A stretch of DNA of 64,000 bases from Bacteroidales bacterium (GCA_024400455.1 JAKSMU010000010.1:9209-73208), one strand, 5' to 3'. Positions 1 through 34,594 are shown, numbered from the stretch's first letter. The notes: generated by a model from the sequence alone, not told the origin. Numbers and translations: made by a program.

Positions 1-349
1 CGTCATCAGGACGATACAAGACCTTGAACTGACCGAAGCTCCTGTTTTGGAAGGCTTTCAGCAAGCGGCACACTACCGCTGGAGGCGTATTGGTTGACGT
101 CGCGTTTTGCGAGCCTCCCGTCGTGGTTATCCATTGGTCGCCGGCAACGGGTTTCATACCTTCCAGTTCGTAGTAGAACAACGACTTGCAGATAAGGTGT
201 TCCGGGTCGTCCATGTGCAGCGTCATCGAGTCGAGACTGAAATCGATAGCAATATTGTAATTCGCTGTGGCAAAGACCGGAAAACTGTCATTCTGGCCAT
301 AAACACGAGCCACAAGCACCATCATTATTATTACCAAAGTTTTTTTCAT
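1..349 (-). CDS. Secreted protein of unknown function, N-terminal part only (runs off the window start)
   Basis: Not in the ORF track because it has no stop inside the window. The reverse complement from ATG at 349 reads MKKTLVIIMMVLVARVYGQNDSFPVFATANYNIAIDFSLD... It stays open to position 1, has a signal-peptide-like N-terminus, and starts 27 nt after the stop of the 432-aa gene on the same strand. Confidence 0.5.
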   Translation of the reverse strand, partial: MKKTLVIIMMVLVARVYGQNDSFPVFATANYNIAIDFSLDSMTLHMDDPEHLICKSLFYYELEGMKPVAGDQWITTTGGSQNATSTNTPPAVVCRLLKAFQNRSFGQFKVLYRPDD

Positions 350-376
350 ATCGCAGTTAATTTTTCACCATTTTGA

Positions 377-1675: not shown

Positions 1676-1689
1676 CTTATATTATCCGT

Positions 1690-4600
1690 TTAATGTAACA
1701 TCAAATTCTTAATATACTCGTGTGCGTCGATTTCATCGTTGACATCGATGCTGAACAGCATCTCTGCGTTGGTGTAGCAGTAGATGGTGATGGTGTGGCG
1801 CACACCCGGACGCAACACGCCGTCAGGCTCATCCTCGAACTGGGTCGGAATCTCCAGTTCGGTGCGGTGGATGTTGAGTTCACCACGGCGCAAGCCGATC
1901 CACGATTCGCCCAAGCTGCGCAGCACGATGCGCGGATTGACGATATCGGTGTTACCGATGTTGCCATATTCGAGCGTCAGGCAGCAGTAGCGGTTGGCGC
2001 GCAAGCCGACCGGAATGATGAGGTTGGTCGACAGGTTCTCAGGCTCGCCTTCCACGACAGTGAAGCCGTTGTGGAGGTAAGCGGCGCCAGCGCAGTAATT
2101 GATGGCACGCACCGTATAAGTGCCCAATGCAGCGCCCTTCAGGTCGAAGGTGACAAACACCTCGTTGAAGTTGACATACTGCAAGGCCTCGGCCTGGATG
2201 GTATCGGTAGCGTTGTAGAGAATCACTTCCATGTCGTGACGGAACTTCGAGCCGATGAGCTTCACGGTCACCTTGCCGGTGTTACCGCCACGGTTCGGGC
2301 TGATGCTGCGAATCTCGAACGGCAGGATGTCGGCCTCGATGGTCATCTGCTGGTTTGGATGTGCAGGACTGTAGCCGAACACGCTCACGCCATAATAGCC
2401 TGGTTCGGTGCGCGGAATGTAAAGCTCGCTGTTCGAGGTCATCTGACCATCGGTGGAGATGTCGTAGTCGAGGTTAGTACCGACACCGTCGTGCAACACA
2501 TAGATGTTGTTGACGGCACCCACCAGCGAATCGGTCGAGGTGACATACACGCGGACGGTCTCGCTGATGTTGCTGCCCACCACAAGTTTGTAGTCCTTGT
2601 ATTGGAAGTTATCCATAGTGAACGGCACCTGCTCATTGAACGGCAATATAGGCAGTTCAACTCTCACTCTACCGAGCGAAGCCGTGCGGTTGTTGTTTTC
2701 TTCGATTTCGTAGAAAGTATTGCGGGCATCGGTATAAACGATGATGTAATACTCGCCTTCCTGTACGCCCGAGATGTTGGCTTCGAGCTGGTGCTGTTCG
2801 CTCACGTTCTCCATCAGAGAGAGGTCGTAGGCAATATTGCCCAGCAAGCGGTCGTCGGCATCAAAGATGGTGTCGGTGGAGAGATAGACCACATCGGAGC
2901 AACCCACACCGGTAAGGGTGTTAGGACCGAGGTTCTTCACCTTCCATGTAATCGTCATGCTGTTGCCAGCCGTGATTTGCGACGGGAAGTCGATGTCGGT
3001 GACGATGAGGTCGCCAGGAGCGTTCAGGTCGACCACCACAGGCAACATGCCAAGGTTGTTGTCGCAATTCATTTCATAGAGTGCCTCGCTGTGGTTGGCG
3101 TTGACATAGAAGGCATAGTTGCCCGTCTCAGGCACCGGAACGATGAAGGTAGCAGTGTCGTAATAATATTCACCCGGATTGAGGACATCCTCACGCGTTT
3201 CAGTGGCAATCACCTGACCATGGTCGTAGGTATTGCGCGAAAGGACGACGCGGTCGGCGTAAGTACCGTAGGTAGGTCCGTCGCCCACATTGGTGACCTT
3301 ATAGCGCACCTCGATTGGCTGGCCGCAGGCTGGGAATTCAGTTAGGAGTTCCAAGTCGCTGACTTCAAGGTCAGGCACCGGAATGCTCGTAATGTTGATA
3401 GCCAATGCCTTCACATTGTTTTCAGCATTCGAATCAGGATTAGCGGCGGCATAGTCGGTGACGACCAAGAGGTACTGGTCACCGAGATAACCGTAAGGTA
3501 TCGTGACGTTGAAGCCATCATTGTACTGGCCTCCACCCGACACGACATCGTTTTTGGTCTTCTTGGCGAGCATCAGGTCGTTGGCATCCAAAGTGGCATC
3601 ATCAGAGAGATAGATTCTATCCTCATAGTTGCTCACTGTGGGCCGTGAACCGAAGTTATGGACCGTATAGGAATACGACACAGTTTCAGACCACTCAACA
3701 TCGGTTGCTCCGGTGAACGAAGTCACGGCAAGGTCGAGGCTGTATTCCTGGACCGGGAACGACACGCTCTGATACGTATTGTTGTATTCGCCGACATACT
3801 CGAACAGGTTGTCGTTCACATCGCTGACGATGTAAATGTAGTAGTTGTCGGTGGCCAAGGTATTAGGCAGCATCACGGTACGGGTGGCGCTGTAGGTATC
3901 GCCGATGGCCAACGGGCCTTGCTTGCTGATGGAGGTGAGACGTTCGGCATTCTCGACACTAAACTGAGGATAGTTCGACACATAGATGGCATCGGTCCAA
4001 GTTTCGTCGGCTGCGATGGCACGAATGCCTTGGTTGGTAGCCGTATAGGAGATGTCCATCGACATGCCAGCCGTTCCACTGCCAGGCTGTGTGGCATCGG
4101 TGATAAGCAGGTCAGGATATGGCGAGAGGGTGACACTCAACAGGTCGGAAACGATGTAGTTGGTGTACACATTGTCGCCTTCGCAGATGCCGTCGCCATC
4201 GTTGACCACAATATAGATGTAGTATGGACCTTGCGCCTCAATAGGCAGCGTCACATTCTGCACGATGGTCTCGGTGCTGTCGGCAGCCAGTGCAATCGGA
4301 TAGGTGATGATGTCGAGCGGCTGAGCCGTGATGAAGTTGAGTTCAGGCGACAAGCCGAGATAAACACCCAGTTCAATATCACCGGTATAACCGATGCTAC
4401 CCTTGTTGGTGATATCATAAACCACATCGAACGAATCGCCAGAATTGAGCGTGGTAGGCGCCAGCAAGTCGTGGGCCATGAAGTCAGGATTCTTCAACAG
4501 ATAGTGTTCATCCAAGCGGTTGTTGTTGGTGAAGTCCTTATCGTTTTGCGGCGTGGCTTGCAGTTTCACCGAGTTCACCTCATAGAAGTTACATGGGATA

Positions 4601-7600
4601 TCGATAGCCAGACTGCCAACGAGGGAGTCACCCGGATTGAGGTTGATTCTGGTGAGAGATGCCCTACCCACCTGGGCGTTGTTGAAGTTGGCCGTAAGCG
4701 CAATGCGCTCGTCGACCATCTTGCCCGAACCGATGTTGCGCAGCACATAGCAGAGCGAGTCGCGGGTATCGTTGATCCAGAAATTCTCGACCGTAAGGTC
4801 AGGCTGCACTACATAGATGGAATCGACGGCGATGTTGTTGTCTTCGTGCTGATATTCGAAGATGGCATCGTTCTTGTCGGTCCACACATAGAAGTAATAC
4901 TTGCCTTCCTGAGTGGTATGAGGCGTGCGTGCCTTACCCGTAACCATATAGGAGTTGATGTAACGGTTGTGAGGAATCGTATCGCCATTCTTATAGAAAT
5001 AGTGCTGTTCATCATAGAAGTCAGCGATGAGACCCGGCACGGCAGCCACGGCTTCATAATATCTGACGCTATCGGCGTGCGAAGCATTTGCGCTCAGCGT
5101 GTCAGGCACGGTGAAATGACATTCGGCCCAACGCATGATCATCGTATCGATGGTCTGGAAGTCGGTTGGCAGATAAAGTATGGTATCGTTCGAAATGCTG
5201 CCGATGCTCGTGGCAAAGGACGTGTTCAATTCAGGTTGATCTGACAGATAGAAGAAATCAGACCACTGCTTGCCGCGCCATGGCGGGACGATACCGCACG
5301 AGTCGCTGATGCCGCCGCCTTGGTTCGGGTCATCCAAAGGCTTGGCCGCCACATAACCGATATTCTTCACCCTATACGAGATTGGGAACTGTTCGTAAGG
5401 CGAAATGGTATCCATGCCCAAAGTCAGGTTAGTGACTGTGAGATCAGGTGGTGGAGCCGGCAAAAGGATGGTGCTATGGACTGAAACCGGCGACATGTTG
5501 TTGCCTTCGAAGAGCGATTCATAGACCGTATTGGTAGCATCGATACGCACGAAGAAGTTGAAGGTATCGATGGCGCGTTCATCGGTGACAAACGACATGG
5601 TGCGGACAATAGTGTCACCAGCAGCCATCAGCGGAATGGTATCCATATAGGTAGCTACCTGAGTGGCTTGTGAAGAATAAACCGTGTCAGTCGTCATGTA
5701 GATAATATCGGTGACAGGCCTGTTCTCGAATCCTGCCCTACCTTGGTTGACAATCATCCAACTGACAGTGATGGTGTCGCCGGCCACGCCTTCGTATGGA
5801 GGAATGACATTGGTGCCAATCAAGTCAGGATAAGGCGGAATATCGACTTCAATCTTCTTGTAGAAGAAGTTATCGCACTCCACGATTTCGCGGAACGACT
5901 CAGCAGCGCAAGTACCCGTCATGTAACCTTCAGGATCGCCTGGGTCGTGCGGGATATACGGAGGCAGATATGGATCAGGGAATACGCCGCCATACGACGA
6001 GTAGTCAAGGTGCATGTCGCTGTAAGGCACCCAGTTGGACAGTACGAAGAGGAACACCGTTCCGTACATGTCGTCAGGCACAAAGATATTGGTCGAATTG
6101 GTGTAAGACTCGCCCGGATTCAAGGCCGTTAGGTTAGGCACCGTGGCCATGAGGAACGACTCTGGGTTCTCTTGCGTGAAGCTTTGGTGCGTCCAGTTGT
6201 GAGGATACGAGAGCACGATATAATCGTTCCAAGTACCTTCAGCACCCGTCGGTGTAGGACCAACGCCGTCGTTCTTCACCGTCCATTCCACAGTCATCAC
6301 TTGACCGGTTTGGGCGTATGAGCAATCCAATGCCGAGACATGGAGGTCAGGCAAAGCCGTAGTAAAGGTCATGGTGTCGCTCTGGATTACGGCGCAGTCT
6401 TGGTGGGCAACGACATACCAAGCGTAGTAAGCCACGCCTGTGGTGTCGTACTGGTGCAGATACAACGGAGGTTCAGGGTCACAACCCCAACCGAAGCAGT
6501 GTTCGTAAGCACCATAGCCTTGGTAGACGGAAGCGCCCAAATCGACGGTAGCATAGTTGTTGCGGATGCCGTATCTGACCGGGAAGTCAGGGATTTCGAG
6601 GCCATTGCCGTAGTCGGTGCGCCACAGGTAAAGGTCGTAGTAATCGGCGCCTTCGATGTAGTCCCAACTGAAGAGCACCTCCTCGTTCGACTGAAGGGCC
6701 TGTTCGCGCACTGGCAGCAGGCCTTCTTCATCCAGGTAGTTGTTCCAAACGATGCTTTCAGGGTCGCAAGCGGTATTGAAATAAACCGGCAAAGTGTAGC
6801 CGCTCATCTCCGTACTGCTGCACATCGAACGCACCTTAACGAAATATTCAAGGTTTGGCTCCAGGCCGTCAAGCACGATGAAGTTGGTATCAGCAACCAA
6901 GATATGAGGCGTGATTTCATCGACTTGCATGTAATAGACCATCCATTCCGATTCTTCGTCGGCAGGCGTCCAATACACATTGGCAGTCGTGAAGGTGATT
7001 TCATTGTCAGGAACAATCAATCCCGTCGGCACATGGCAGTTGACTGGGGTCATTTCGTAGGCACCCATATCGATGATGGCATCCTGGATACGCTCGTTGT
7101 CAGCCAAGTCGAAGTCGCCAGGAGCAGCCGTGGCGTTGTTACCCACATTGATACACATTGACGATTCCTGCAAGCTGAAGTCGCCATTGTCAGGATCGGC
7201 GAAACGCACATAGTTGAAGCTTGGGTTGGTACCGTCGTTGTCGGACTGCAACACGATGTTGCCCGTACCAGCCGGGAAGGTCTCGTCGCTTTCGAAAGCG
7301 GTGTATGAAATGGTTCCCGAAGCAGGAATGATGCCTCTCACATTGCTCACCAAAGCACCGGTGCGGTTGCCCCAAACGATGTTGTTCGACCAATAGTCGT
7401 AAAGGGTTTCACCGAAGACACCGCTCATGCGGCCCAGATACATACCGCCGCCATTGTTTGCACTTCCGTTATAGATATCAGCCGTGTTCTTCACTACGGT
7501 GCTGTTCTTCATCCTCGGAGCGCCATACAAGCCACCACCCTTTTCAGCATGGTTGTAACTGATTTCGGTATTGTAGATTTCAGGCGAACCATTGATACCG

Positions 7601-10600
7601 CCACCGCTCTTGTCGGCGGTGTTGTTCTTGATCAAGCACCAATTGATGACATCGCTGCTGGCCTTGATGGCACCGCCATCGCCATTGGAATAGTTGTTCA
7701 TGAAAGTGCTGTGATAGATATGGCAGTTCGAGCTGTTCAAGGCACCGCCGCCATGACCGGTAGGATAATCGCCTTCCCAAACCATGGTATTATTCAGGAA
7801 CTGGCAATAGTCGATGTCGCAGTTCTTGAGGTAAGCAGCACCACCCTCACGGTTGCTTCGGCCGTTTTGGAAGGTAATGCCATTCAGTATGTCGCGGTTA
7901 TTGGATGTCGTATAGTCGCGGCGCATAATCTGCTGCAAGTTCTGACCGTCGAGACGGGTGATGTTGAGGTCGAAGTCGCGCAGCGAGAGGTCGTAGCTGG
8001 CAGGTTCGTTACCGGCAAAGCCACCATACAGGCTGATGTTGTCAGGCAAGTTGAAGGCCGGATATTGAGGAACGCCGCTGCCCGTGTAGATACCGGCAGC
8101 CATCCAAATCTGCGGACGAGGCGACATCAGCGTGGCGCGCTCCATGGCAAATTGCAGATAAGGAGTTGCATCTTCCCATGAAGAGCCGTTCTTCAAACCC
8201 GCGCCGAACTGAGTGACATAGATGATGTTGTTGGCATCAGGTTCAATCTCATAGTCGAAATCGTATGGCGATTCGTAAGCACCCATATCCGCCTTTTCGC
8301 GTTGGACACGGTTGTTATGGCCGAGGTCGTATGTTCCAGAGACATAACTCAGTTTTCCGTGATTGACGAGGACAGAACCATCTTCGAGCGACCAATCGTC
8401 GTCATCGCTGACATAACCGTTTCCGGCACCAGCCGCGATGGAAGGATTGACGAACATCGGATAGTTGATGTTGATGTCGCTGTTTCCACTGTTGTTGACA
8501 TTCAGGGTAATGTTGCCTTCACCAGCAAAACCGCCTTCGATGGCGCTGTAGAGCACGTCACCATTGCCGAAGGTATTCTGATTGTAGGAAGGATCGCTCG
8601 TACGCAACTGGCATGGCAGATTGTTGCCTATCTTGTTGCCCCAAAGCACACTGTTATAAACCTTGTTATAGATATACAAGCCGCCACCATCAACAGAAGC
8701 ATAGTTGTTGACAATGGTCGAATTGTAATGTGTACCACCCGTACCGGCACCGCCATTACCACTTGCACTATTGTTGGCCAGCAAGCAGTTATGGAAGATA
8801 ATGTGAGTACCATTATAGCCACCACCATTATAGCCACCACCATTATAACCAGAACCGGTATTTGAAGCGGTGGTCTTACAGTTACGGATAATCGTGTTGT
8901 CAACGATGAGGTCATAGTTATTGAAGAACAAACCACCGGCAACGCCGTCTCTGGCTTCACCGTTTTCGATGATGCATCGGTTCAAGTTACCCTTTTGCAT
9001 CATGACCACACCACCATTGTTCTTATAAACGAAACCGTTCTTGAGCGTCAGACCGTCATAAATGGCGCTGTGCAGTTCTTCGATTTGCTTGTATTTGAAG
9101 TAAGTGCTGTGAGCCTGTTGCAAGGTACGCTGGATGTTCTGACCATCGAGGATGGTTGCGTTAGCTTCGAGGTCACGGTCATCAAGGTCGTAATCGTAGG
9201 CTTCGTTACCGGCGAAACCGCCATAGAGGTCGATGCCGTTCAGGGCTACGAAAGCATCAACATACGGCCAGCCGTTACCTGTATAGGTACCGCCAGCAAT
9301 CCAAATCTTCGGACGGTTGTCGTTATCGCCTGCGAAGTTGATGGCCAGCTGCAGGTCAGGAATAGCGTTGGTCCACGAGTCACCGCTGTAGTCACCGCTA
9401 TTGTTATGGGCATCAACATAGATGATGTTGTGTTCGTCAGGACGCACTGCAAAATCGTGAGTATAGTTGCTTTCGTAAGCACCGATATCGATTCTGCTGT
9501 TCTTCACACGGGTCTCGTCGTCGAGGTCCTTGGTGATGGTGTAGGTCAGGCGTTCACCGTGGTTGGCGAGGATGGAGTTGTCTTGGAAACGCCAATCGCC
9601 GCCGCCATAGTTGGCACCCACATTTTCCGATGGGTTGACGAACTTAGGCGAGAAGAGATCATTGGTGTTGTTGCCAGCAGTCAGCTTGATGTTACCGATA
9701 CCGGCAGCGCCGCCTTGGACAGCGCAGTAACGCAGGTAAATCGGGACATTGGAAGCGCTCACCGCAATCTGCTGTGTATTGAGGTCAGTCTTGTTGCCCC
9801 ACAACACGCAGTTGATGAATTCGTTATTCGAACTGCTGTTTTCGCTATACACGCCACCAGCCAGGTCGTAAGAGTAGTTGTTCACCATAGTGCAGTTCAG
9901 CAGCTGCGAAGCCACTTGCGAGTTGGCGATGTACATACCGCCGCCCTTGGCGCCCGTGGTAAGGACGCTGTTGTTGGCAATCAGACAGTTGTTGATGGTT
10001 GCGTTGTTGCCATAGATACCGCCACCGAGTTTGCTGCCGCTTTCGACATTGTCGCAGAGGTTACGGTAGATTTCGCAATAGGTCAAGGTTGAAGACTTCA
10101 CCCAGGCGCCGCCACCATCGTGCAAGGCCGTGTTGCTGAAGATGTCGCAGTCGCTCACTTCGCAACGGTTATCGACATAGATACCGGCACCACTGCCGCC
10201 TTGGTTGTTCTTCACGACGAGGTTGTTCAATGTGATGTAGTTCTTGGCATACACGCCGCCACCTTCCTTGGTGGTGTAACCGTTCTGGATGGTGAAGCCG
10301 TCAACGGTGGCGCGTTTCATTGGGCCGAAGCTCGATTCGTTGCCATAGTTGCCGAGGACACGCTGGCAATGGCTGCCGTCGAGGATGGAAGCATGGTTCA
10401 CGAAGTCGCGGCTATCGAAATCGACATTTTCCAATTCGTTGCCTTCGAAGCCACCGAGAATCTCGATGTTAGGTTTCAGCGTGAAGGCCTGGACCGATGT
10501 GCCGTTGCCTTGATAAAGGCCTTGTGCCACCCAAATCTGCTTGGTACCTACGGTATCGCAGGCCGAGGCTTGGCTGATAGCCCAGTTGAGGTCGCCCGTA

Positions 10601-22600: not shown

Positions 22601-25600
22601 ACATTGACACCTTTCACCATGGTAAAGGCGTTGTGGCCGGAAATGCTGTCGCCTACGTAAGTACCCTTAGCCACCCAAATGACGGGCTTAACCGTCATGT
22701 CGGCAGCTTCGGTCAAAACATTAGTAAGTCCGGCAGCGGCATCAGCCCATGAAGAGCCGTTTCTAATACCAGCGCCCGTCGTCGTCACATAAATGATATT
22801 GTGTTCGTCAGGGCCAATTTCCGAACCCATGCAAGGCGATTCGTAGGAACCGACATCAATCTTTCCACGCCGGATACGGTCGTTGCCAGCCAAATCCCTT
22901 TCAGGCAGCGTTCCGTAAATGTCGCTTTCCGTTCCCTTATTAATTAAGGCTGAGAATTCGAGCAAGGTCCAGTCGCCATCAGTGAAATCAGCGCCAGCAC
23001 CTTCCGTCGGATTGGCAAACCTCACATAATTCAGCAGTTCGTTGGAGCCCGCATTCTCCGACTCAAGAGCGATGTTCCTATTGCCCGAATAGCCGCCTTC
23101 CACAGCGCAATAATTGAGCGTCGGGCTATAGCTTCCCAAAATATTCGATGCAGTCGAAATGACCTTGTTGCCCCAAACGACCGTATTACGCAATTGCACT
23201 GTCGAAGTACCCGGATATACGCCTGCACCTGTGTATCCGCCATCCGTAATCAAGTTATTGACGACATCGCAGTTGGTCATATAGGTTGAGCCACTTGCAT
23301 ACAAGCCGCCACCACTTTGCACCGATGTATTGTTATTGATCAAGCAACCGACAAAGTAGTTGTAACCATTAGAATAAACGCCACCAGCTCTTTGACCTGC
23401 CTTATTGTTGGCAATAACGCAATTGGTAAGTCTTGAATAATAGGCATAAACACCGCCACCATAATTTTCTGCTTCATTTGAAGTGAATGAGCAATTCGTG
23501 ATGGTTTTGTATAAATAGCCGCTCGCATTTGCTGAAAAGCCACCACCATATTGCGCACTATTGTCGTGAACGTCACAACAATTCAGCGTTGCTTCTGACT
23601 GCACGAAAATGCCACCGCCATTAGTAGCATAGTTGCCGTAAACCTGACAGCTATCAACAGTGCTGCCGCTATCGCAGAAGATACCACCGCCATAGCCCAT
23701 ATTCGAACCAGAAACCACAGTATCGTTTCGAACAATGCAATGGCGAAGCGTTGCGTAGCTCCCGATACATGCGCCAGCGCCTTTTTCAGCATGCCGACCA
23801 TTCTCAATTACGAAACCATCCCAAAGGGTTGCCGTCGCCTCGCTGAATCCAATTCGCTGATTCAACACACGCTGCACATTCTGACCATCAAGAATAGTCT
23901 GATTGTTTTCAAGGTCACGCAAGCGGAGGTCGTAATCGTATGGTTCATTACCAATGAAACCGCCATACACATTCACTCCCTCAACCATCGTGAAGGCATC
24001 GTTAACTGCATTGCCGTCACCAGTATAGGTACCGGCAGCGACCCACACCATCGGTTTCACCGTCATAAAGCTAGCTTCATCAAGGACTGCATTCAAGTTG
24101 CCCGAAGCATTCTCCCACGAAGAGCCATTACGAGTTCCCGCTCCAGTTACGGTGACATAGAAGATGCCATGCTCGTCAGGAGTCAGGTCGTTCGACTCAT
24201 ACGGTGATTCATAGGCGCCGATATCAATCTTTCCATTTTGCAAACGGTCGTTTCCGGCAAGGTCGGTGGTCGGAAATGTGAAGTTTTCAATCTCATAGAC
24301 ACCTTTGTTAATTAATGCAGAGCCTTCTTGAATAGTCCAATCGCCATTGGCAGGATCAACAAACTTCGGATACAAGGCGTTCTCGTCATCGCCATCGTTC
24401 AGCGAATTCAAATTGACGATTCGAGTCCCTTCATAACCGCCTTCCACAGCGCAGTAGTTGGCCACGAACTTGCAGCCTGCTATGCTGCTAAATTCTCCAT
24501 TAGCCTTGTTGCCCCAAACGACCGTATTATATAAATAATTCCTATTATCCCAATTGCCGCTAATGCCCGCACCATATATTTCTGTTCCCGTCAAAATGTT
24601 ATTGACGATGTTGCAATTGATGACCTTTCCAGCATAGTTATAGACATAGAGACCTCCGCCATAGAGATAGTTTCCATTCCCGATGTTGTCGGCAATCACA
24701 CTATTCACGATGCAGCTAGCTGAGTAATCACTCGAACCCGGATAATAATAAACGCCAGCGCCATACACCGAATAGCCCTCTGCCGTATTATGATGGATAT
24801 TACAGTCGTAAATTGAAACGTTATAGGAGGAATACAAGCCAGCGCCTTTGGCCAATCCGTCAGCGGTATTGATTCTGTTATCATGAATCACACATTGCTT
24901 AATCGAACCGTTGTCGGCGTATACGCCAGCGCCCTCGGCTTCTCCTGCGACACTGATATAGTTGCCATAGACCTCGCAGTTCTCAAGTGTGGCGCCGTAC
25001 ATATACACACCTGCACCAGCACTGAAAGTGATGCTACGGTCTCCCCTATCTCCCTTGGTGTTTGCCATTCTCTCTGCATTGCCGCGGAAAGCAGCCATTT
25101 CCGGTTCCGGATTGACATTGCCTTCAATCACAATGCTATCATTTCTGATAATGCAGTTGCGGAGTCTACCATTATCATTCAGCAAGGCACCAGCACCGTA
25201 TGGATCGGAGGTCAAGCGGCCTCTTTCGATAGTGAATCCGTCCCACACCGTCACAATCCTAAAGTTGTCAGGCTGGCACAACACACGTTGGGCATTCTGA
25301 CCATCAAGCACCGAGGCATGTAGGGCAAAGTCACGTGAAGCCAAATCGTAATCGGCAGATTCATTGCCTGCAAAACCGCCATACACATCCACTTCCTCGA
25401 CCATCACAAAAGCACTGTTGCCTTGGATGCCATCACCATGATAGGTTCCTTGGGCAACCCAAACAGAAGGAACAGAATTCATCTGCGAAGCAGCCATCAC
25501 CACGGCATTTAAGTCGTCGGCTGCATTATCCCACGAAGAACCGTTTTTGCTTCCCGCACCTGTTGGAGTGACATAAATGATGTTGTTTTCGTCAGGGGTA

Positions 25601-28600
25601 ATATCAATAGTGGTTGCGTCGTAAGGCGTCTCGTAGGCGCCCACATCCACCATGCCTTGTTGGAGACGCGCATTTCCTGCAATATCCGTATCGGGCAGCG
25701 TGACGGTTTCCGGCAAATCGGTGGTACCTCTATTGACCAAAGCGGAACCTTCCAAAATGTTCCAATTGCCACCCGAGTATTCAGGTCCGGCACCAGCCGT
25801 CGGAGCGATGAACATCGGACTTGATGCATTCCCAGTGTTTAAGCCTGAGAGCAACAGGTTGTTCATGCCGCTGCAGCCACCTTCAACAGCGCAGCAGTTC
25901 GCCTCACCGTCCGAATTGTACACATTGAGCGAAGCGCCATTCTGGCGGTTACCCCAAATAACACTGTTGGACGCAATGGCATTATAGTCCAAATACAGAC
26001 CTGCGCCACCATATTCATCGCTATTCGAGGAAACATTGTTCACAATATCGCAGTTGATGGCAATGCTATTATATCCCAAATACAAGCCGCTGCCGCTGCC
26101 ATATTGTCCATCAATACCGTTATTAGCGATGATAGTGTTATATAATATCGCATATTCGGAAGTGTAAACGCCACCGCCATAACTAGCCTCATTACCTTCA
26201 ACAAGGCAATTCCTGACAACACAATGGTTGTCGGATTCGGCATCGATATACATGCCACCGCCCCTTCTTTCAGAGCTTCGGCCCGTAATCGAGTTGTTCT
26301 TGATTTGGCAATCGGTGATCTCAGCAACATCGGCACAAACACCTGCTCCATATCCAGAAGCCGAATAACCCTGAAGCTGGATTTCGTTGTCGTGAACCTT
26401 GCATCGAAGCATCGAAGCACCTTCCGACAAAATCACACCGGCTGCTTGAGCCTCGCCATCAGTGATGATGACATTGCCATAAATCTCGCAGTCTTCTAAG
26501 TTACTATTCACGATACCAGCACCAGCACCAACAGCATAATAACTTGAGCGATTACCTCTGTCGCCCTTAGCGGATTGTCTCATGGCCATGCCCAAGGTTT
26601 CCACTTGGTTCTTCGAACCCAGGAGCTCTCGCGAACCTAAATCGAGAGGCTCGTCGCCCGAACCTTCAGGGTCGATGGCTTCCAAAGTATTGTTCCGGAT
26701 AATACAGTTGCGCAATGTAGTGTTACCTATCAAAAACACACCGCCACACATAGTGTTCTCGCCTTGCTCATAACCATTCTGGATGACGAAACCATCCCAC
26801 GAAGCAGACCTGCTTTCCGAAAATTCTCTCAACTGACATAGTACAGGCTGCAAATGCTGACCATCGAGGATGGTGGCATTGTTGACCAAATCACGCTGGC
26901 TCATATCGTAGCCAAACGGCTCATTGCCCGCAAGGCTGCCATACACATTAACCCCTTCCTGGACATAGAACGCATACTGATTTGGGAGACCGTTTCCATA
27001 ATAGGTTCCGCCTTTCACCCAAACCGTCGCAGGCGTGCGCATCCGTGAAGCATAATACACCGCACTGTCAAGCGTCGGGCAAGCATTCTGCCACGAGGAG
27101 CCGTCCATAGTCCCTGCGCCAGTTGGAGTGACATAAAGGATGTTGTTGGCATCAGGCACAATCTCGTTGGTCGTGAATGAACACACAGGGCTACTAGTCA
27201 CACCCGTCGTGTTACGTTCCTTCACCTGCCAATAATAGGTGGTACGAGCGGCCAAGTCCATCGAGAACGAATTGGACAATTCAGAAGTCCAGTCCACGAT
27301 AACATTCGTGGGTGGATTTGTAGTGCCGCAAAGCACCTGATATTCCTTAGTGAAATCACCGAAAGTCCAGTTGAAAGTATAGTTGCCGCCACCAGCGTAT
27401 GTAATCGCGCCATTGACAGGGTTCATGTTTTCAACAGCGTATGGCAAAGGCCAGTCTTCCTTGTCGAAATTCACTGTGAATTCCTGATTCGATGAAGTAG
27501 CCACGACATAATAAGTGCCTGAGGTGAGTCGCAAAGCCTCGTCGCCATTCGAAGGCAACTCGATATCATCCACACGGAAGACATCATCACCAGAAGATGC
27601 GCTGACATCCTTATAATACACCCATTGAAACGAATGAAGGCCAGCTGAAATTGGGCACTCAAATTTTTGCCATGAAGAATAATTTGTTCCCGACACGCTC
27701 AGCATTTGAACCCCGTCCAAATTGAAATACCCTTCGTCATAGTTCGATTCCGAACTGATAAAATACCAAAAACTGAACGTGCCTTCCATTGCAACATTAA
27801 AGTCAAATGAAGCGACAGAAGAACTGTTATGCTGACCAAAATTCGTGGAATGCATAGAGTACGAACCATCATGTGCCGCCGTGTTGTCAACAACCCAAGG
27901 ATAGTATTCCGTTTTCCAGTCGAAGACATCAAGTGTTCCTTCTTCAAAGCCAGTGGCTGATGGCATGACTGACGGCATGGCATTTTCTGTTTTAGGTCCA
28001 CCAAGACCTTCAAAACCATCGTGATAGAAAGTCAATTTGCCATCGCCATGCGTCTCAATGGAAGATTCAAGGAGCACATCGGTAGAAAGATTCAGTTTAA
28101 AGACTGCATCCACGCCAGTTTGCGGAGCATCCTCGATATTGTAGTTCAAATACAGGTTTGAACTTTCGTCATAACTTTGAGTAAAAGGAAAATTCACAAT
28201 CTCTTGAGCAACTTCCCAAACATCAGGGGTGACAGGTGTATAAGCCGTCGCCGACAGCGGAATCGTGGTTTCGCCATCCTCACCATAATGCAACACCAAA
28301 CCGCCTTCTTCGAGGCCGCTGCCCGAACCCGTATTCACCATAAACGGGCGCGATTCCAAATAATCCAAGGCAAACGGAGTTTCAAGGCCTGTCACAGAGA
28401 AGTAACTGTTGGTCAACTCAATAGAATTAACCGTTGTGGCCTCACCCGAATTGCCAAGCAACACCGTCACAGGTTCCATCCAGCAGCCCGACGGGCGATT
28501 ACCCAAATAAGGTGCCTCAGGCATTGCGACAAGCGATGTATTGGGCTTTGTTTCAAACTCAAACACGCTCCAGTCGCTTTCGTTGCCACCTGCATATACT

Positions 28601-29709: not shown

Positions 29710-29762
29710 AGTATAATACTTTTCACAAATGCAATTACTAACTGCACACAATTTTGAAGATG

Positions 29763-29770
29763 CAAAAATA
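29763..29770 (-). promoter_or_regulatory. Candidate Bacteroidota -7 promoter box (TATTTTTG) for the giant gene
   Basis: The plus strand reads CAAAAATA, which is TAnnTTTG on the minus strand, 53 nt upstream of the ATG at 29709. Confidence 0.4.
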
Positions 29771-29822
29771 GGGAGTGTGTTTTAAACCATTGTAGGTATT
29801 ATTACCTATATAATGTCATTTT

Positions 29823-29845
29823 TTATCAACAACACCTGTTGATAA
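29823..29845. promoter_or_regulatory. Perfect 9-bp inverted repeat TTATCAACA-N5-TGTTGATAA between the response regulator gene and the giant gene
   Basis: Read directly from the sequence. It sits about 55-80 bp upstream of the candidate -7 box and is not followed by a T-tract in the direction of transcription. It therefore looks more like an operator or activator site than a terminator. Confidence 0.45.
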
Positions 29846-29901
29846 TTGCATTGAGTTACTCGGAAGCAAAATAAGTGATTGTATTATGGTAGATTCAGCC
29901 C

Positions 29902-30561
29902 TCAAGCCGTGATGATGCCATGCGTAAAGGCATAGTTAACCAACTCGCCGATGCTTTCAAAGCCCATCTTGCCATAAATATGATTTTTATGGCCTTCAAC
30001 CGTACGAACGCTAAGCTGAAGTCTTTCAGCAATTTCCTTAGCACTGAAACCTTGGGCGCAAAAACGAAGTATCTCAATTTCACGGGCTGTCAATATCTCG
30101 TTCAGATCCTCGCCTTCTGCCGTCGCCACTTCCTCCATCATGGCATTGATACCCTTGCCATAGTATCCGAAACCCGAAACAACCGCATGTATGGCCTCAA
30201 GCAATTCGTCGGACTGCACTTCCTTACTCACAAAGCCATTGATTCCCATCTCAATCAAGGCGGTGATATGATGCGGATTCAAATCGACCGACAGAACCAG
30301 GATTTTCGTCGCCGGACAATTGATGCCGACGTAACGCACCACTTCCTTTCCATTGCCATCGGGCAGTTGCAAATCAAGAAGAATAAGGTCGATGTCTTTC
30401 CGCGACTCCAAAGTCTCAATAGCTTCCTTCAAAGTGCCCGCTTCTGCCACCACCTCAAGATGTTCATCATCCTGTTTCAACGTCATCGCTATCCCCCTCC
30501 GATACAGAGGATGATCATCAACCAATAACAACCTGACCTTATCAAACTTGTTTTCTTCCAT
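29902..30561 (-). CDS. Response regulator, NarL/LuxR family (REC domain plus LuxR-type HTH)
   Basis: VRLLLVDDHPLYRRG, the phospho-acceptor context DLILLDLQLPDGNG, and the C-terminal LTAREIEILRFCAQGFSAKEIAERLQLSVRTVEGHKNHIYGKMG. Confidence 0.9.
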   Translation of the reverse strand: MEENKFDKVRLLLVDDHPLYRRGIAMTLKQDDEHLEVVAEAGTLKEAIETLESRKDIDLILLDLQLPDGNGKEVVRYVGINCPATKILVLSVDLNPHHITALIEMGINGFVSKEVQSDELLEAIHAVVSGFGYYGKGINAMMEEVATAEGEDLNEILTAREIEILRFCAQGFSAKEIAERLQLSVRTVEGHKNHIYGKMGFESIGELVNYAFTHGIITA

Positions 30562-30620
30562 TTTACATTTATTTGATTATCAATAAAATTATCCAATTAT
30601 TCACCCATCACCATTCCCCA

Positions 30621-32561
30621 TCACAGCAAGTGTATCTTAAATCCGATTTCAGTTCCATTTCCAACCTTGCTTTCCACTTTCATCGAAGAGCCTATCTCTT
30701 CAAGAAGACAGTTACAGACAAACAAGCCGAAACCCATACCCTTCTCGCCTGCCGTACCTGACGACGCTTCTTTCTTTGGCTCAAATATTTCCTTTATGCG
30801 TTGCTCGGAAATTCCAATTCCCTTATCACTAACCGTCAGGAAGCCATCCACAATCGCGACATGGATTTCGCCTTCTCGGAAGGAAAACTTCACCGCATTC
30901 GACAACAAGTTCTGGATCACGGTTTTCACAATATTCAGGTCATCGAACGCAATTGCATCTGGCGCAATATCGTTAAACACCTTCAACGACTTAGCCGAAA
31001 TAAAAGAACTTTGGGCATTGATGCATTGCGTCACAATACGATAAGGGCTGAAACGCACAGGGGTATTTTTGAGTTTGCCATTGCGAAGCGACACCCACTG
31101 CACAAGATTCGTAATCTGGTCATTGAGCGAATGGGCCGATTCCTTAATCAATTCACAGTTTTCCTTGACATCGGCCGCCGGCATCTTGTCGAAATTGCGG
31201 CAGATGTTGTCGAGCATCTGTTTCTGTGCTAGCACCGGCGTACGCAAGTCGTGCGCAACGATAGAGATGAGCCTGTCCTTGTTTTGGCCGCTTTGCGCCA
31301 GTTCCTCATTACGGCGTTTCCTGATATTGGCAAGCCTGAATTCCACAATGGCAAAGGCTATCGACACCACAAGGATGACCGAAAGCAGAATAATGACCAC
31401 CACTTTCCTATGGTTTTTCTCTTTCTCCAACACAATCTCATTATCGCGTTCCAAAGCATCATACTGCATCTCCATTTCGGAGAGTTTCAGTTCCATCTCA
31501 TGCGAAGCGATGCTGTCCTTATCCGACTGATACTGTTTCATACACCGATAGGCACCCTCATAATCGCCCATCTTAACCGCAAGATTGCCAACGCGTTCAA
31601 GCAAATTAGGAAGTGCCGACCTGAAGCCATTATCACGGAAAATCCTTTCCGCCTCCTTATAATGATGCATCGCATTGTCATGCTGATTCATCTTTTCCTC
31701 CACATCGCCCATGCCAACCAATGCGACAGCCATGTAATACAAATCGCCCGACTGTTCAAAATCCTCGTAAGCCGCCTTCAAAATCGGGTACGCCTCATTA
31801 TAGTGATTCTGCAAAAAAAGCACCTTGGCTTTCTGCACTTTCCGGATGTCAGCCTTGCGCACAAGGCCCAAATCCGTTTCCAAAGCGACGGCTTCGTCAA
31901 GGCAAACCAATGCAGAATCGTATTGCTGGAGACATGTCAGCACATCAGCCTCAACGCCAAGACGAACCGCAAGACGGTCACGGCGGTTTAGCTTGCGTTC
32001 AATTTCAACCGCGTTTTTCGAACAGGTCAAAGCCATATCAAAACAATCTAAGCGGGTATTCAGCACTGCAAGGGAATTCAAGGTAATGCTAAGATATTCG
32101 TCGCGATGAAGCTTTTCGTGCACCCTCATTTCTTTTTCGCAGCATGAAAGCGCATTCTCGTAATCGCCTATCAACTGATAATCCATTCCCATCAGCGAAT
32201 AAAACTCAAACTGCCAGAGTAAAGAATCCACAGGAATCAAGGGCAAAGTGGACTGTGCCAAATCAAGCGATTGGAGACATTTCCCGTTGACATACCATTC
32301 CGTTGCGACACAGAAATTCAGCACCATATCCATGTAATCCCTATCCGTTTCCTGAGTGAAAACGACAGGCGCATCCATATAGTTCTTTTGCTGGAAAATG
32401 TCAAGAAGTTCCGTAGCCAAACCGAATCTTTCATGACGTTGCGCCTCGCGGTAATTCCAATACAGCGAATCGATGTCCTGAGCCTTGACGACAGAAAATG
32501 GCAGACCAAGCAACAGAACGGCCACAACTCTTTTTAAATGTCTTTTTACAACCGGATTCAT
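30621..32561 (-). CDS. Sensor histidine kinase with an N-terminal signal/anchor, a long TPR-like extracytoplasmic region, one TM segment, HisKA and HATPase_c
   Basis: H-box ISIVAHDLRTPV, N-box LLSNAVKFS, G1 VSDKGIGI, G2 GMGFGLFV. TM segment VVVIILLSVILVVSIAFAIVEF. The N-terminal 380 aa have TPR-like A/Y/L periodicity. Confidence 0.88.
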   Translation of the reverse strand: MNPVVKRHLKRVVAVLLLGLPFSVVKAQDIDSLYWNYREAQRHERFGLATELLDIFQQKNYMDAPVVFTQETDRDYMDMVLNFCVATEWYVNGKCLQSLDLAQSTLPLIPVDSLLWQFEFYSLMGMDYQLIGDYENALSCCEKEMRVHEKLHRDEYLSITLNSLAVLNTRLDCFDMALTCSKNAVEIERKLNRRDRLAVRLGVEADVLTCLQQYDSALVCLDEAVALETDLGLVRKADIRKVQKAKVLFLQNHYNEAYPILKAAYEDFEQSGDLYYMAVALVGMGDVEEKMNQHDNAMHHYKEAERIFRDNGFRSALPNLLERVGNLAVKMGDYEGAYRCMKQYQSDKDSIASHEMELKLSEMEMQYDALERDNEIVLEKEKNHRKVVVIILLSVILVVSIAFAIVEFRLANIRKRRNEELAQSGQNKDRLISIVAHDLRTPVLAQKQMLDNICRNFDKMPAADVKENCELIKESAHSLNDQITNLVQWVSLRNGKLKNTPVRFSPYRIVTQCINAQSSFISAKSLKVFNDIAPDAIAFDDLNIVKTVIQNLLSNAVKFSFREGEIHVAIVDGFLTVSDKGIGISEQRIKEIFEPKKEASSGTAGEKGMGFGLFVCNCLLEEIGSSMKVESKVGNGTEIGFKIHLL

Positions 32562-34513
32562 TTTTCAATCAATATTTTACAAGTCCAATCCTTATTTCCA
32601 GCAATCACACGAACAACATAAAGCCCTGATTGTTCAAAACCGATTTCAACCGAATCGGAATCACAGTCCTTTTCAAGTATTTTCCTTCCCACGACATCAA
32701 ACGCCTCCACCTTCTCCATGCCTACGCAATGCAAACAGACCTTATCTCTTGCCGGATTCGGATAAACGGATACCATCTCCGCATTATCTTCTACTTCATC
32801 ATAATAGACGAAATGAGCCGTGTAAGTCTTGTCGCCCGTCACATTGAAACTGATTTCAGGTTCCAAACTTACAATCTCACCCGATAAAGACCAATATGTA
32901 AATGAATAGTCTTCAGCTGGTTCAGCCGTCAAAGTACAGACATCGCCATAATAGAACCAGCCGCCGCCATCCACCGTTCCACCCGTTTCGGGGTCGACCA
33001 CGGCAACGATTTCGTAAGGCACCAGGAAGAAATGAGCCGTCAAGTCATGGTCTTCATTGACAGTGAAACTATATGAAGGTGAATTACTTACCGTTACTCC
33101 GTTTTCAGTCCACTTATCAAAACCATAGCCTGGTGCCGAATGCGCTACAAGCTGGCACTGCGTGCCGGCTATATAATTGCCCGCTCCCGTAATGCTTCCG
33201 CCATTGATTGGTTCGGGCGTTGCCGTCACCACATAACAATCTTGGGCAAAAGTCGCCACAAAATGATGGTTGCCATCGACGGCAAAAGTAAAATTCTGAT
33301 TTGTGCTCACCACTTCCCCGTTTTCCTTCCAATTGATGAAATAATAGGTAGGATTGGTCAAAGCCCGAACCGTAACCATATCGCCAAAATAGAATATGCC
33401 GCCACCTTCGACTATGCCGCCCGTTTCAGGCTCAGCCGACAACGTAATTTCGTATGGAACACGGAAAAAACAAGCTTTCAAATCATGGTTTTCGTTGACA
33501 ACAAAACTATAAAAAGACGTTGTACTGACCGTTTCGCCATTTTCCATCCACCTCTCAAAGACATAGCCTGGCTTGGGGAAGGCTTCAAGCTGACATAACG
33601 AACCAACGACATAATTGCCCGCACCCGTAATGTCACCGCCATCCATCGGTTCGGGCGTCACCGTCACCACATAACATTCCTGCTCGAAAACTGCCACCAA
33701 ATGACGGTCACCGCCCACAGTGAAAGTGTAATCCTGAGTGGTGCTCAACACTTCATCGTTTTCCTTCCAACCCGTAAACGAATAGGTAGGATTAGCCGTT
33801 GCGTGAACCGTAACCGTTTCGCCATACGAATAGGTTCCGTCACCTTCAACCGAACCACCTTCAATTGGGTCGACCTCAAGACTGATTTCAAATTCATCAA
33901 GTTGGAAGACAGCTGTCAGTTCCCGGTCACCTTCAACCGTAAAACTGTAAACGCTATCTGCAAAGACGGTCACATCATTCTCTTTCCATGAATCGAAGAC
34001 ATAACCATGATTACTGTTTGCCGTCAAAGTGCATGTCTCGCCCTGCATATAAATGCCTGCGCCAACCACAGTCCCTCCTTCGACGGGCTGGGCTTCAGCC
34101 CCAATGTCACAGGTACTGCCCGTGAACGAAAAGACGTATGGTTCGGAGAGACTTCCAATAATATTATTTGCCACAAACTGTATCGTTGCCGGCGGCGTAA
34201 GGTCGAGCTCCCTTTGCGAGGCATGATCGTATAGACGGAAGTCAAACGTATGTCCGTATTGTCCGTAAAGCGTCAGAAAGACCATGTAACGGTCGAGACC
34301 AACATAATAGGCCAGCATCTCACTGCCACGGCATTCATCGCCACAGAAAGCCCCAATTTCGAGTTGCGTCGATGTTTGCTCAATGCCATTGATTTCAATC
34401 ACGCCAATCACGTTCATGTTGTCGGCAAACTGATACGGGTCAGGTTCCCAATGGTTAGCCCGCATCATTTGAGCGGCTAACGCGAATAGTATAGTCAATA
34501 ATGCTCTTTTCAT
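32558..34513 (-). CDS. T9SS-secreted protein with six InlB-B-repeat (Listeria-Bacteroides repeat)-like domains and a type-A CTD
   Basis: Signal peptide MKRALLTILFALAAQMMRA. Six repeats of about 75 aa follow the pattern GG.V.G.G.Y..G....L.A....GY.F..W.EN...VS....Y.F.V...H.L.A.F. The C-terminus VSVYPNPARDKVCLHCVG...SGLYVVRVIAGNKDWTCKILIEK matches the T9SS CTD pattern. Its stop overlaps the kinase start (ATGA at 32558-32561). Confidence 0.85.
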   Translation of the reverse strand: MKRALLTILFALAAQMMRANHWEPDPYQFADNMNVIGVIEINGIEQTSTQLEIGAFCGDECRGSEMLAYYVGLDRYMVFLTLYGQYGHTFDFRLYDHASQRELDLTPPATIQFVANNIIGSLSEPYVFSFTGSTCDIGAEAQPVEGGTVVGAGIYMQGETCTLTANSNHGYVFDSWKENDVTVFADSVYSFTVEGDRELTAVFQLDEFEISLEVDPIEGGSVEGDGTYSYGETVTVHATANPTYSFTGWKENDEVLSTTQDYTFTVGGDRHLVAVFEQECYVVTVTPEPMDGGDITGAGNYVVGSLCQLEAFPKPGYVFERWMENGETVSTTSFYSFVVNENHDLKACFFRVPYEITLSAEPETGGIVEGGGIFYFGDMVTVRALTNPTYYFINWKENGEVVSTNQNFTFAVDGNHHFVATFAQDCYVVTATPEPINGGSITGAGNYIAGTQCQLVAHSAPGYGFDKWTENGVTVSNSPSYSFTVNEDHDLTAHFFLVPYEIVAVVDPETGGTVDGGGWFYYGDVCTLTAEPAEDYSFTYWSLSGEIVSLEPEISFNVTGDKTYTAHFVYYDEVEDNAEMVSVYPNPARDKVCLHCVGMEKVEAFDVVGRKILEKDCDSDSVEIGFEQSGLYVVRVIAGNKDWTCKILIEK

Positions 34514-34532: not shown

Positions 34533-34540
34533 CAAAAATA
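34533..34540 (-). promoter_or_regulatory. Candidate -7 box (TATTTTTG) for the repeat-protein / two-component operon
   Basis: The plus strand reads CAAAAATA, 20 nt upstream of the ATG at 34513. It overlaps the T-tract of the arcC terminator. Confidence 0.35.
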
Positions 34541-34569: not shown

Positions 34570-34594
34570 CCCTGCAAATACCATGAAAAATTTA

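Follow-up and report, generated by a model that had tools for sequence, protein, structure and literature searches.

Gene content and domain architecture of the locus

The DNA analysed here, a stretch of 64,000 nucleotides (nt) from a Bacteroidales bacterium (GCA_024400455.1, JAKSMU010000010.1:9209-73208) that we refer to as the window, holds most of a locus of ∼46 kb built around one very large gene, here called the giant gene. The locus of interest runs from position 34513 to position 1. Both the map of open reading frames (ORFs) and our reading of the sequence place all of its genes in an unbroken run on the minus strand: a secreted repeat protein of 651 amino acids (aa), a sensor kinase, a response regulator, the giant protein, a 432-aa protein and the beginning of a TSP_3-repeat protein (Table 1). 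An earlier note, made on this DNA from its sequence alone, had described the one-strand run and its tight junctions, and we reproduced all of them. The 651-aa gene and the kinase gene overlap by 4 nt (ATGA, 32558-32561), and the spacings that follow are 59 nt (kinase to regulator), 192 nt (regulator to giant, counting from the giant ATG at 29709), 14 nt (giant to 432-aa gene) and 27 nt (432-aa gene to TSP_3 gene).

Table 1. Coordinates of the features of the locus and its surroundings in the window
Feature	Position	Strand	Details
TSP_3-repeat protein, ∼429 aa	1-349	-	first 116 codons in window; start ATG 349, cut by window start
∼430-aa family protein, 432 aa	377-1675	-	directly follows giant
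Giant gene, 28,020 nt, 9,339 aa	1690-29709	-	ATG 29709, stop 1690-1692
Giant residues 8991-9339, tail	1693-2739	-	conserved 349-aa C-terminal tail, beta-sandwich-like domains
Giant residues 7548-8990	2740-7068	-	FN3 + linker, then about ten CARDB-type Ig-like domains
Giant residues 857-7547	7069-27141	-	15 tandem modules of ∼365-520 aa, right-handed beta-helix
Giant residues 1-856, "head"	27142-29709	-	signal peptide, FN3 domains, ∼200-aa "X" domain, MAM/cleaved-adhesin-like beta-sandwich
Regulator-giant intergenic region	29710-29901	-	candidate promoter/operator with both inverted repeats and -7 box
Bacteroidetes-type -7 box	29763-29770		TATTTTTG
Inverted repeat 2 (IR2)	29793-29808		TAGGT-N6-ACCTA, perfect
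Inverted repeat 1 (IR1)	29826-29842		TCAACA-N5-TGTTGA, perfect
NarL/LuxR-type response regulator, 219 aa	29902-30561	-	REC PF00072 77.6 bits; GerE helix-turn-helix PF00196 62.5 bits
Sensor histidine kinase, 646 aa	30621-32561	-	TPR_12 70 bits; HATPase_c 70 bits; HisKA E=9e-5
Secreted 651-aa repeat protein	32558-34513	-	N-domain ∼120 aa, six InlB-B-type (Flg_new_2) repeats, probable type A C-terminal domain of the type IX secretion system
TATTTTTG box	34540-34533	-	20 nt upstream of the ATG of the 651-aa gene
Intrinsic-terminator-like hairpin past arcC	34573-34546	-	12 pairs (6 G-C), then T run
arcC	34595-35533	-	TIGR00746 375 bits
Two tandem C10-family (streptopain/PrtT-like) cysteine protease genes	44435-49831	-	758 and 1,026 aa

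The ORF of the giant gene as listed spans 1690-29751; we took ATG 29709 as its start, from which the product begins MKMILRYLL... with a signal peptide. The 28-kb reading frame described in the earlier note is genuine, as intact orthologues of 8,506-9,623 aa are found in independent assemblies and its domain matches are strong. The head matches the Pfam families fn3 (55 bits) and MAM (E=0.0023), and head homologues bear Cleaved_Adhesin or Peptidase_C25 domains or carry the source name choice-of-anchor J. The "X" domain of the head (motif YNYSYTQQI) is 43-53% identical in other giant alleles and in a second gene arrangement described below. This domain (window 28720-29322, giant residues ∼130-330) is also found, often internally, in many other JGI metagenome proteins of 1.3-5k aa (L055-L091). 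The metagenome scan made with it returned mostly unrelated large proteins having only that domain in common, and also a subgroup of 4.2-5.0k-aa proteins that combine the "X" domain, beta-helix, CARDB and the same C-terminal tail (46-48% identical).

The motif IIYV..G.G.GSSW.NA caps each beta-helix module of the giant at its N-terminus, and the choice-of-anchor Q motif DLAGN.R...G.ID.GAYE closes it; we counted 15 caps and 14 ends. The modules are ∼42% identical to one another and match PF13229 Beta_helix with 175.6 bits (cutoff 25.9) and NF041518 choice_anch_Q with 179 and 113 bits (cutoff 25). PF07705 CARDB scores 127 bits in the giant and 85 bits on its last 700 aa, the number of CARDB-type domains (∼10) being an estimate from the length of the array and not a direct count. 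The last ∼125 aa of the tail are the best-conserved stretch of the locus. Neither Por_Secre_tail nor CHU_C gave a match at E≤1 on the last 700 aa, the NCBIfam scan of the last 436 aa gave none, and PDB profiles gave only insignificant FN3-like matches to the tail. No autotransporter family was matched in the scans of the giant, whose tail is made of beta-sandwich-like domains and not of a C-terminal barrel translocator. A word-indexed protein search with the giant N-terminus gave no more than domain-level matches, none above 1,450 aa; as the index seems to leave out very long proteins, the missing giants are uninformative.

The 432-aa protein matches no Pfam or NCBIfam family. It belongs to a rare family, here the ∼430-aa family, which comprises 40 representative clusters among 1.84 billion representative proteins in an exhaustive HMMER search; the word-indexed search found three clusters only, and a 22-sequence profile there found 4 proteins. 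That this product is a lipoprotein, as the earlier note had it, is doubtful. Its signal peptide reads LVASC in the window, and the Cys is missing in a 75%-identical orthologue (P0002) and in most of the 22 aligned members, while an A-Q at the signal peptide end is invariant in the family (Q27). Such an end fits cleavage by signal peptidase I under the Q-rule of Bacteroidetes. Because the lipobox Cys is not conserved and A-Q is, we read the protein as probably a signal peptidase I substrate. An AlphaFold2 model built from 22 sequences (pLDDT 77) predicts a signal peptide followed by a pair of Ig-like beta-sandwiches, then a long helix (236-263) and 7-8 strands that reach ∼20 residues in length; a first model from 4 sequences (pLDDT 38) was discarded as unusable. 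The C-terminal strands of the family strictly alternate hydrophobic and polar residues. In the model they could be a small (8-stranded) outer-membrane barrel, with which the pattern is compatible, though it is no proof of one. No segment of the locus varies more than residues ∼28-170 of this protein.

Downstream genes beyond position 1 were read from related contigs, chiefly L001. The earlier note had regarded the block as self-contained, which it is not, since three further co-directional genes extend ∼9 kb beyond the window start in these contigs. The product of window 1-349 coincides residue for residue (100% identity) with the first 116 aa of the 429-aa protein of L001, in which PF02412 TSP_3 scores 144 bits over 7 stretches after a variable N-terminal domain. 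Its signal peptide ends ...VYG/QN, and its top NCBIfam match is the Myxococcus cohesion protein MtsC (199 bits, cutoff 350), reached via the repeats only. In L001, after spacings of 19 and 19 nt, the TSP_3 gene is followed by genes for a 1,689-aa protein, with DUF7619 and a type A C-terminal domain (CTD) of the type IX secretion system (T9SS), and for a 754-aa protein that also has a type A CTD (TIGR04183 at 24.5 and 27.4 bits in that order, cutoff 23). Because a convergent gene follows the 754-aa gene in L016, L017 and L019, the operon ends there. A match of the 754-aa protein to the CFA/I pilin CfaB was rejected as chance, its per-domain independent E-values being 0.06-0.18 and the whole-sequence E-value being inflated by a trimeric fusion entry. 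Sequence and profile searches of the PDB found nothing significant for the ∼430-aa family, the giant tail, the 1,689-aa protein or the 754-aa protein.

Upstream of the giant, the kinase consists of an N-terminal transmembrane (TM) or signal segment, ∼350 aa of periplasmic tetratricopeptide repeats (TPR), a second TM segment at ∼386-407, HisKA and HATPase_c, the TM segments being read from the sequence. Its predicted architecture is FimS-like, since FimS has the layout TM, periplasmic TPR, TM, kinase (PMC11053733), and Porphyromonas FimS (NF053520) is its top NCBIfam match, with 233 bits over residues 130-642. This lies below the equivalog level, for which the cutoff is 600 bits. The Pfam and NCBIfam scans of the locus proteins found no Fim/Mfa pilin family among the neighbours. 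All NCBIfam equivalog matches of the regulator (MctR, FimZ, NarL and others) fall under their cutoffs. A regulator of identical sequence occurs in 36 blocks of the collection; in the contigs shown, its context is the same throughout.

The two palindromes and the TAnnTTTG box that the earlier note placed in the regulator-giant gap are present (Table 1). Between strains with giant allele A, B or C, the arms of both inverted repeats and the -7 box show no difference, while the IR2 spacer varies. IR1 is unique in the window, where 0.31 matches would be expected at ≤1 mismatch; as an operator candidate it is absent from the loci of the second arrangement. The window as a whole has no excess of TAnnTTTG (41 matches vs 38.8 expected), and for such boxes it is placement alone that is suggestive.

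The 651-aa protein had been described as a T9SS-cargo repeat protein. The repeats, six in number, are borne out (PF18998, 255 bits across 6 stretches), while its CTD is only borderline, with 26.6 bits for PF18962 (cutoff 27) and 19.1 bits for TIGR04183 (cutoff 23); orthologues have precomputed PF18962 matches, and the C-terminus in the window reads ...GLYVVRV...KILIEK. Its N-domain aligns with the 1,689-aa protein at 34% identity (E=7e-21) and with the 754-aa protein at 29% (E=1e-11). This shared domain of ∼120 aa (W.P....F..NM...I..G......LE.GAF.GD.CRG...FRLYD; window 34120-34460, residues ∼17-137 of the 651-aa protein) has no Pfam or NCBIfam model. It is found, N-terminally or internally, in dozens of T9SS proteins of 0.5-2.8k aa (L020-L050), whose genes form tandem arrays in metagenome-assembled genomes (MAGs) of Limimorpha, of Lentimicrobiaceae-labelled bacteria and of F082. 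Because it is so widespread in arrays of large T9SS proteins of the lineage, the domain is not specific to the locus. The 651-aa protein itself measures 578, 602, 651 or 675 aa between strains with 99-100% identical flanks (L006-L011), and nucleotide identity falls locally to 56% inside its gene (window 33562-34062), which points to repeat-number polymorphism. By its distribution the gene is not a conserved member of the locus, as it is not conserved outside the species.

Conserved gene order and allelic mosaicism

The genome scan for related loci was anchored on the 754-aa family, and all the related loci come from herbivore gut or rumen Bacteroidales MAGs (Limimorpha, Lentimicrobiaceae-labelled, F082), Limimorpha being placed in Bacteroidales incertae sedis. 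In 13 of 13 loci, the gene directly after a giant-type tail encodes a ∼430-aa family member, at identities down to 22% and including the 4.2-5.0k-aa relatives. Next, in the 12 loci where sequence continued, come a TSP_3 protein and a long relative of the 1,689-aa T9SS protein, and a ∼750-aa T9SS protein closes the run where the contig reaches it (L001, L015-L019). This core order was seen in L001-L005, L015-L019, L051, L053 and L054, that is, in metagenomes and in four GTDB MAGs; the latter carry the whole module and include Candidatus Limimorpha equi and a horse-faeces Bacteroidales MAG. All of the ∼430-aa members checked lie directly after a giant-type ORF (P0001, P0002, P0003, P0053 and P0043, as well as P0050 at 22% and P0036 at 28% identity). 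In L063, a 4,635-aa relative has the same tail and the next ORF matches the hidden Markov model of the ∼430-aa family with E=4e-37. The conserved core is therefore a five-gene operon encoding the giant, the ∼430-aa protein, the calcium-binding TSP_3 protein (∼430 aa), a T9SS cargo protein of ∼1,700 aa and a second one of ∼750 aa.

The TPR kinase and the LuxR-type regulator adjoin the giant in this species in 7 contigs (the window and L006-L011), which carry three very different giant alleles; the order in L006-L011 is arcC, repeat protein, kinase, regulator, giant. In the second arrangement, a kinase (610 aa, with TPR) and a regulator are followed by an optional AAA_14 gene, a 754-like gene and the giant. 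The sensor/regulator pair is so placed in 8 of 10 such loci (L013, L014, L024-L028, L031), from at least seven other species; in the remaining two it is divergent (L039) or absent (L030). Kinases of the second arrangement are 26-29% identical to that of the window. The AAA_14/DUF4143 ATPase gene between regulator and 754-like gene lies at L014:5143-6399 and L026:7521-8777, and L013 retains only a 71-aa remnant. In our sample, no locus lacks the downstream linkage, whereas that to the sensor/regulator pair is frequent but has exceptions. Of the order that the earlier note had proposed to look for (two-component pair, giant gene, lipoprotein gene), the step from the giant tail to the ∼430-aa gene is thus found in every locus, and the step from the pair to the giant is not.

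A related pair was also seen in L023 (726-11506), where it is 36-37% identical to that of the window and lies upstream of T9SS proteins of 1,585, 512 and 516 aa, with no giant. FimS-like pairs may be general regulators of surface-protein arrays in this lineage.

The mosaicism of the locus was absent from the earlier note and is new in this analysis. The contigs L006-L009 have flanks 93-100% identical to the window from position ∼39.5 kb through the regulator up to the -7 box, and giants that are only ∼35% (8,506 aa) or ∼40% (9,623 aa) identical in protein sequence over the first 3,260 residues; the giants of L010 and L011 are 97.5% identical to that of the window. In a sliding-identity profile, identity between strains with different giant alleles collapses just downstream of the -7 box. 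At the other end of the gene, the giant of L051 is 98.3% identical to that of the window in 10,003 nt, and the alignment ends at 1689, one base past the stop codon. Downstream of this position there is no nucleotide similarity, and the proteins are 28% (432-aa homologue), 39% (N-domain of the TSP protein) and 47% (long protein) identical. The mirror case is L001, whose giant is 60-74% identical up to about window position 2400 and then 98-100% identical through the cassette.

Across 12 loci, giant tails are 57-99% identical; among the 432-aa proteins, at least 8 types can be told apart, with identities of 22-35% between types. In L016 and L018, the tails are 96-98% identical to that of L001 and the ∼430-aa proteins 22-26%; for L018 the two values are 98% and 26%. 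Two segments vary at nucleotide level: one of ∼2 kb between the stop codon and the beginning of the TSP_3 repeats, and one that takes up the initial 1.2-2 kb of the long gene. When 432-aa proteins of a single cassette type are compared, identity is 38-47% over residues 37-144 and 89-97% over residues 217-432, and a further breakpoint lies inside the ∼430-aa gene. Taken together, the alignments suggest that the giant, the cassette from the stop codon onwards and the N-terminal part of the long T9SS protein are exchanged almost independently of one another between conserved anchors.

Two smaller irregularities were also observed. In giants that are otherwise 99-100% identical (window vs L002, L010 and L011), patches of 87-93% identity lie at 20100-26500, 6300-6900 and 9900-11400, a pattern suggestive of gene conversion among the beta-helix modules (∼42% identical) or of import from other alleles. 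In L009 (1-4800), the flank upstream of arcC (P-type ATPase, lipocalin and others) is swapped for a 2,133-aa T9SS protein, and this swap marks another recombination boundary, right at arcC.

On its upstream side, the locus is bordered by the hairpin and T-tract terminator after arcC that had been noted before and that we found as well. This terminator-like hairpin and the TATTTTTG box, at 34533-34573, mark the upstream edge of the block. The remainder of the window holds housekeeping genes and the two tandem C10 proteases, each with an I69 inhibitor-like propeptide and a type A T9SS CTD; the larger one (1,026 aa) also has an RGI_lyase-like beta-sheet domain. Adjacent tRNA-Arg(ACG) and tRNA-Glu(CTC) genes (43364-43548, plus strand) are the sole RNA genes in the window, and Rfam and tRNA scans found no RNA element in the locus. 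A prophage or tailspike reading was dropped, as phage genes are absent.

A candidate surface fibre and its alternatives

With gene content, domain architecture, conserved synteny and allelic mosaicism demonstrated, we read the locus, at about even confidence, as an operon for a very large, strain-variable and often two-component-controlled surface fibre or adhesin of an uncultured herbivore-gut Bacteroidales bacterium related to Candidatus Limimorpha. The idea of a surface structure fits the secreted and surface-type domains and the T9SS sorting domains of the products; both the surface product and its regulation by a signal are inferred. The earlier note had considered no function assignable outside the two-component pair. 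Domain-level assignments are nevertheless feasible, as given above for the giant, the kinase, the TSP_3 protein and the T9SS CTDs; the 432-aa protein matches no curated family. The note had recognised no named system, and our search of the literature on giant, T9SS, beta-helix and CARDB systems and on choice-of-anchor proteins likewise found no published description of this module.

We propose that the FimS-like TPR kinase would sense a periplasmic ligand and phosphorylate the LuxR-type regulator, which would bind the two conserved inverted repeats upstream of the -7 box and drive the giant operon. All products would pass the inner membrane via Sec, and the two CTD proteins would exit via the T9SS and become fixed to the surface. 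The giant, having no recognisable CTD, would probably be held or exported via its conserved tail by accessory proteins encoded just downstream; here we argue by analogy with SprB, which needs SprF. Exposure to phages, the host or competitors would put the exposed parts under strong diversifying selection, to which the variability of the locus could be attributed, and recombination would reshuffle the parts.

Several observations weigh against this interpretation of a regulated surface fibre. Neither a type A CTD (TIGR04183/PF18962) nor a type B CTD (TIGR04131/PF13585) was detected on the tail of the giant, and hhalign gave a probability of 0.2% when the tail was aligned to the type A CTDs of the neighbours. 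The ∼430-aa protein has no match to PorP/SprF (PF11751, TIGR03519) or to another outer-membrane family, and a Foldseek search of the PDB with its model returned generic multi-Ig and cadherin structures only (TM-score ∼0.15) and no barrel. On the regulatory side, the kinases and regulators of the two arrangements are 26-37% identical, which is paralogue level. There is no sensor/regulator pair upstream of the giant in L055, L063, L064, L068 and L030; in L055, where the giant is 51% identical, aroC lies upstream, and in L063, L064 and L068 the upstream gene is RecQ-like. Similar pairs adjoin unrelated T9SS cargo arrays, as in L023, so the adjacency of the pair may reflect a general habit of the lineage. 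The 3' ends of the second-arrangement giants lie outside the sequence seen. Finally, the beta-helix modules could be enzymatic (lyase- or hydrolase-like) instead of structural.

A sharper form of the surface-fibre interpretation would make the giant an SprB-type T9SS adhesin whose tail is an undescribed sorting domain and whose ∼430-aa neighbour is a dedicated outer-membrane partner like PorP/SprF, the other products being co-secreted accessory adhesins. Type B CTD proteins of Flavobacterium johnsoniae such as SprB require an adjacent PorP/SprF-like gene, and some T9SS substrates carry CTDs outside both TIGRFAM models. Together with these precedents, the T9SS cargo genes in the same operon and elsewhere in the window, a tail that is better conserved than any other part of the locus and has a ∼430-aa gene after it in 13 of 13 loci, and the amphipathic, possibly barrel-like C-terminal strands in the model argue for it. 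On the other hand, the tail has no TIGR04183, PF18962 or type B match and a probability of 0.2% against the local CTDs, the ∼430-aa protein matches neither PF11751 nor TIGR03519, and a docking partner should co-evolve with the conserved tail, yet the ∼430-aa protein evolves fastest in the locus. We think this possible but unlikely. An undescribed apparatus, distinct from SprB/SprF, might also be formed by the giant tail and three variable segments (the ∼430-aa protein, the TSP_3 N-domain and the long-protein N-terminus); it would export or anchor CTD-less giants, or do both, and its alleles would serve strain recognition or phage evasion. We judge this quite unlikely.

Another reading is that the locus serves polymorphic cell-cell recognition or antagonism. 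The variable cassette (the ∼430-aa protein, the N-domain of the TSP protein and the N-terminus of the long protein) would then be no anchor; it would be a specificity determinant carried on the giant stalk, either as in TraA/B-type kin recognition or as an effector delivered along with its partner. Cassette alleles that are 22-35% identical beside tails 96-99% identical, reshuffled by recombination, several giant alleles between identical flanks and the match of the TSP protein to MtsC (199 vs 350 bits, repeats only) are in line with such a role. Against it, the Pfam and NCBIfam scans of the locus proteins found no toxin, nuclease or immunity-type domain, every variable protein bears a signal peptide, and there is no conserved small ORF of the cytoplasmic immunity type. 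Moreover, contact-dependent inhibition (CDI), Rhs and MAF systems vary at the C-terminus of the large protein, and here the C-terminus is the most conserved part. We consider recognition or antagonism improbable. A polymorphic-toxin reading of the CDI-Rhs type was dropped, given the conserved giant tail and secreted ∼430-aa neighbours without toxin or immunity domains.

The neighbours of the giant might also be merely co-directional, the sensor/regulator pair and the 651-aa gene being functionally unrelated to it. For the downstream genes such a fortuitous grouping is already refuted, as the four of them are syntenic in every locus seen, at identities of 22-99%. On the upstream side, the pair is missing at L055, L063, L064, L068 and L030, the 651-aa gene is not conserved outside the species, TPR-kinase/LuxR-regulator pairs are common beside other cargo arrays (L023), and TAnnTTTG is not enriched in the window. 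Yet the pair has stayed adjacent despite replacement of the giant by 35-40%-identical alleles, it recurs in the second arrangement in at least seven other species, and the inverted repeats ahead of the giant promoter are conserved. Overall, we hold little belief in a fortuitous grouping. A cellulosome-type scaffold, in which giant modules would dock T9SS cargo via the ∼120-aa domain common to the 651-, 754- and 1,689-aa proteins and dozens more, is very improbable. In its favour, the proteins share that domain at significant E-values (7e-21 and 1e-11), tandem arrays of large T9SS proteins in the same lineage contain it many times over, the giant would supply 15 + ∼10 repeated modules and the MAG titles indicate a fibre-degrading gut habitat. 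Against it, no cohesin, dockerin, carbohydrate-active enzyme or carbohydrate-binding module was matched in any locus protein and the domain is equally common in loci with no giant nearby.

Few gene products of gut bacteria are as poorly understood as giant surface proteins, and it is an open question how those without a known sorting signal reach the surface; a five-gene module with four uncharacterised families is a candidate for a dedicated route of export or anchoring. The locus also offers a natural experiment, in which 25-29-kb alleles that are 35-40% identical are swapped between near-identical flanks and a cassette has its edge exactly at the stop codon. Such exchanged alleles point to strong diversifying selection on an exposed structure in herbivore-gut Bacteroidales of the Limimorpha group, with a possible bearing on strain typing, phage-host interaction and adhesion to plant fibre or host. 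Should the system prove ordinary, it would still provide a well-delimited FimS-like two-component pair tied to a surface structure that is not a pilus.

Comparison with known systems

One close parallel in organisation is SprB/SprF, encoded by sprCDBF in F. johnsoniae; this comparison rests on established knowledge of the two proteins. Both systems belong to Bacteroidota and have a repetitive, multi-thousand-residue surface protein with a Sec signal, accessory genes in the operon, a small gene just downstream that may serve export or anchoring, and T9SS cargo genes around. They differ in that SprB has a type B CTD and SprF belongs to the PorP/SprF family, neither of which was detected here, and in that the giant has beta-helix and CARDB modules, not SprB repeats, and no gliding genes accompany it.

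The sensor/regulator pair resembles FimS/FimR of Porphyromonas gingivalis (fim, type V pilus), which has a kinase of the order TM-TPR-TM-HisKA-HATPase, a paired regulator and surface-appendage genes adjacent. The kinase in the window, however, scores 233 bits against a cutoff of 600, and its neighbours include no FimA/Mfa-type pilin genes.

With choice-of-anchor Q proteins (NF041518) and chlamydial Pmp-like proteins, the giant shares the right-handed beta-helix, turns of the GGxxY/FxxN type and the choice-of-anchor Q end. Those proteins are typically secreted or at the surface and use various anchors. The giant differs from them in carrying 15 modules in one polypeptide together with a CARDB array, and it has no autotransporter barrel, LPXTG, PEP-CTERM or T9SS anchor. 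The overall plan of a distal head, a long stalk of Ig-like or other repeats, calcium-binding repeats and a cell-proximal anchor with dedicated neighbours is that of the giant adhesins of the type I secretion system (T1SS), such as LapA, SiiE and MpIBP. Unlike the present giant, these have no N-terminal Sec signal and rely on an RTX/T1SS C-terminal signal with genes for ABC, membrane fusion (MFP) and TolC components; here there is a Sec signal peptide, T1SS genes are absent and the calcium-binding TSP_3 repeats are in a separate protein.

In its population genetics, the locus is comparable to hypervariable islands such as the capsule and O-antigen loci and the fimA, mfa and kgp genes of P. gingivalis, which undergo allelic exchange (PMC5266723). 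Conserved flanks, divergent alleles, homologous recombination and surface-exposed products are common to both. What sets the present locus apart is that its accessory families are all uncharacterised, and that its variation is carried by a single gene of 25-29 kb and, separately, by a ∼2-kb cassette bounded at the stop codon of the giant.

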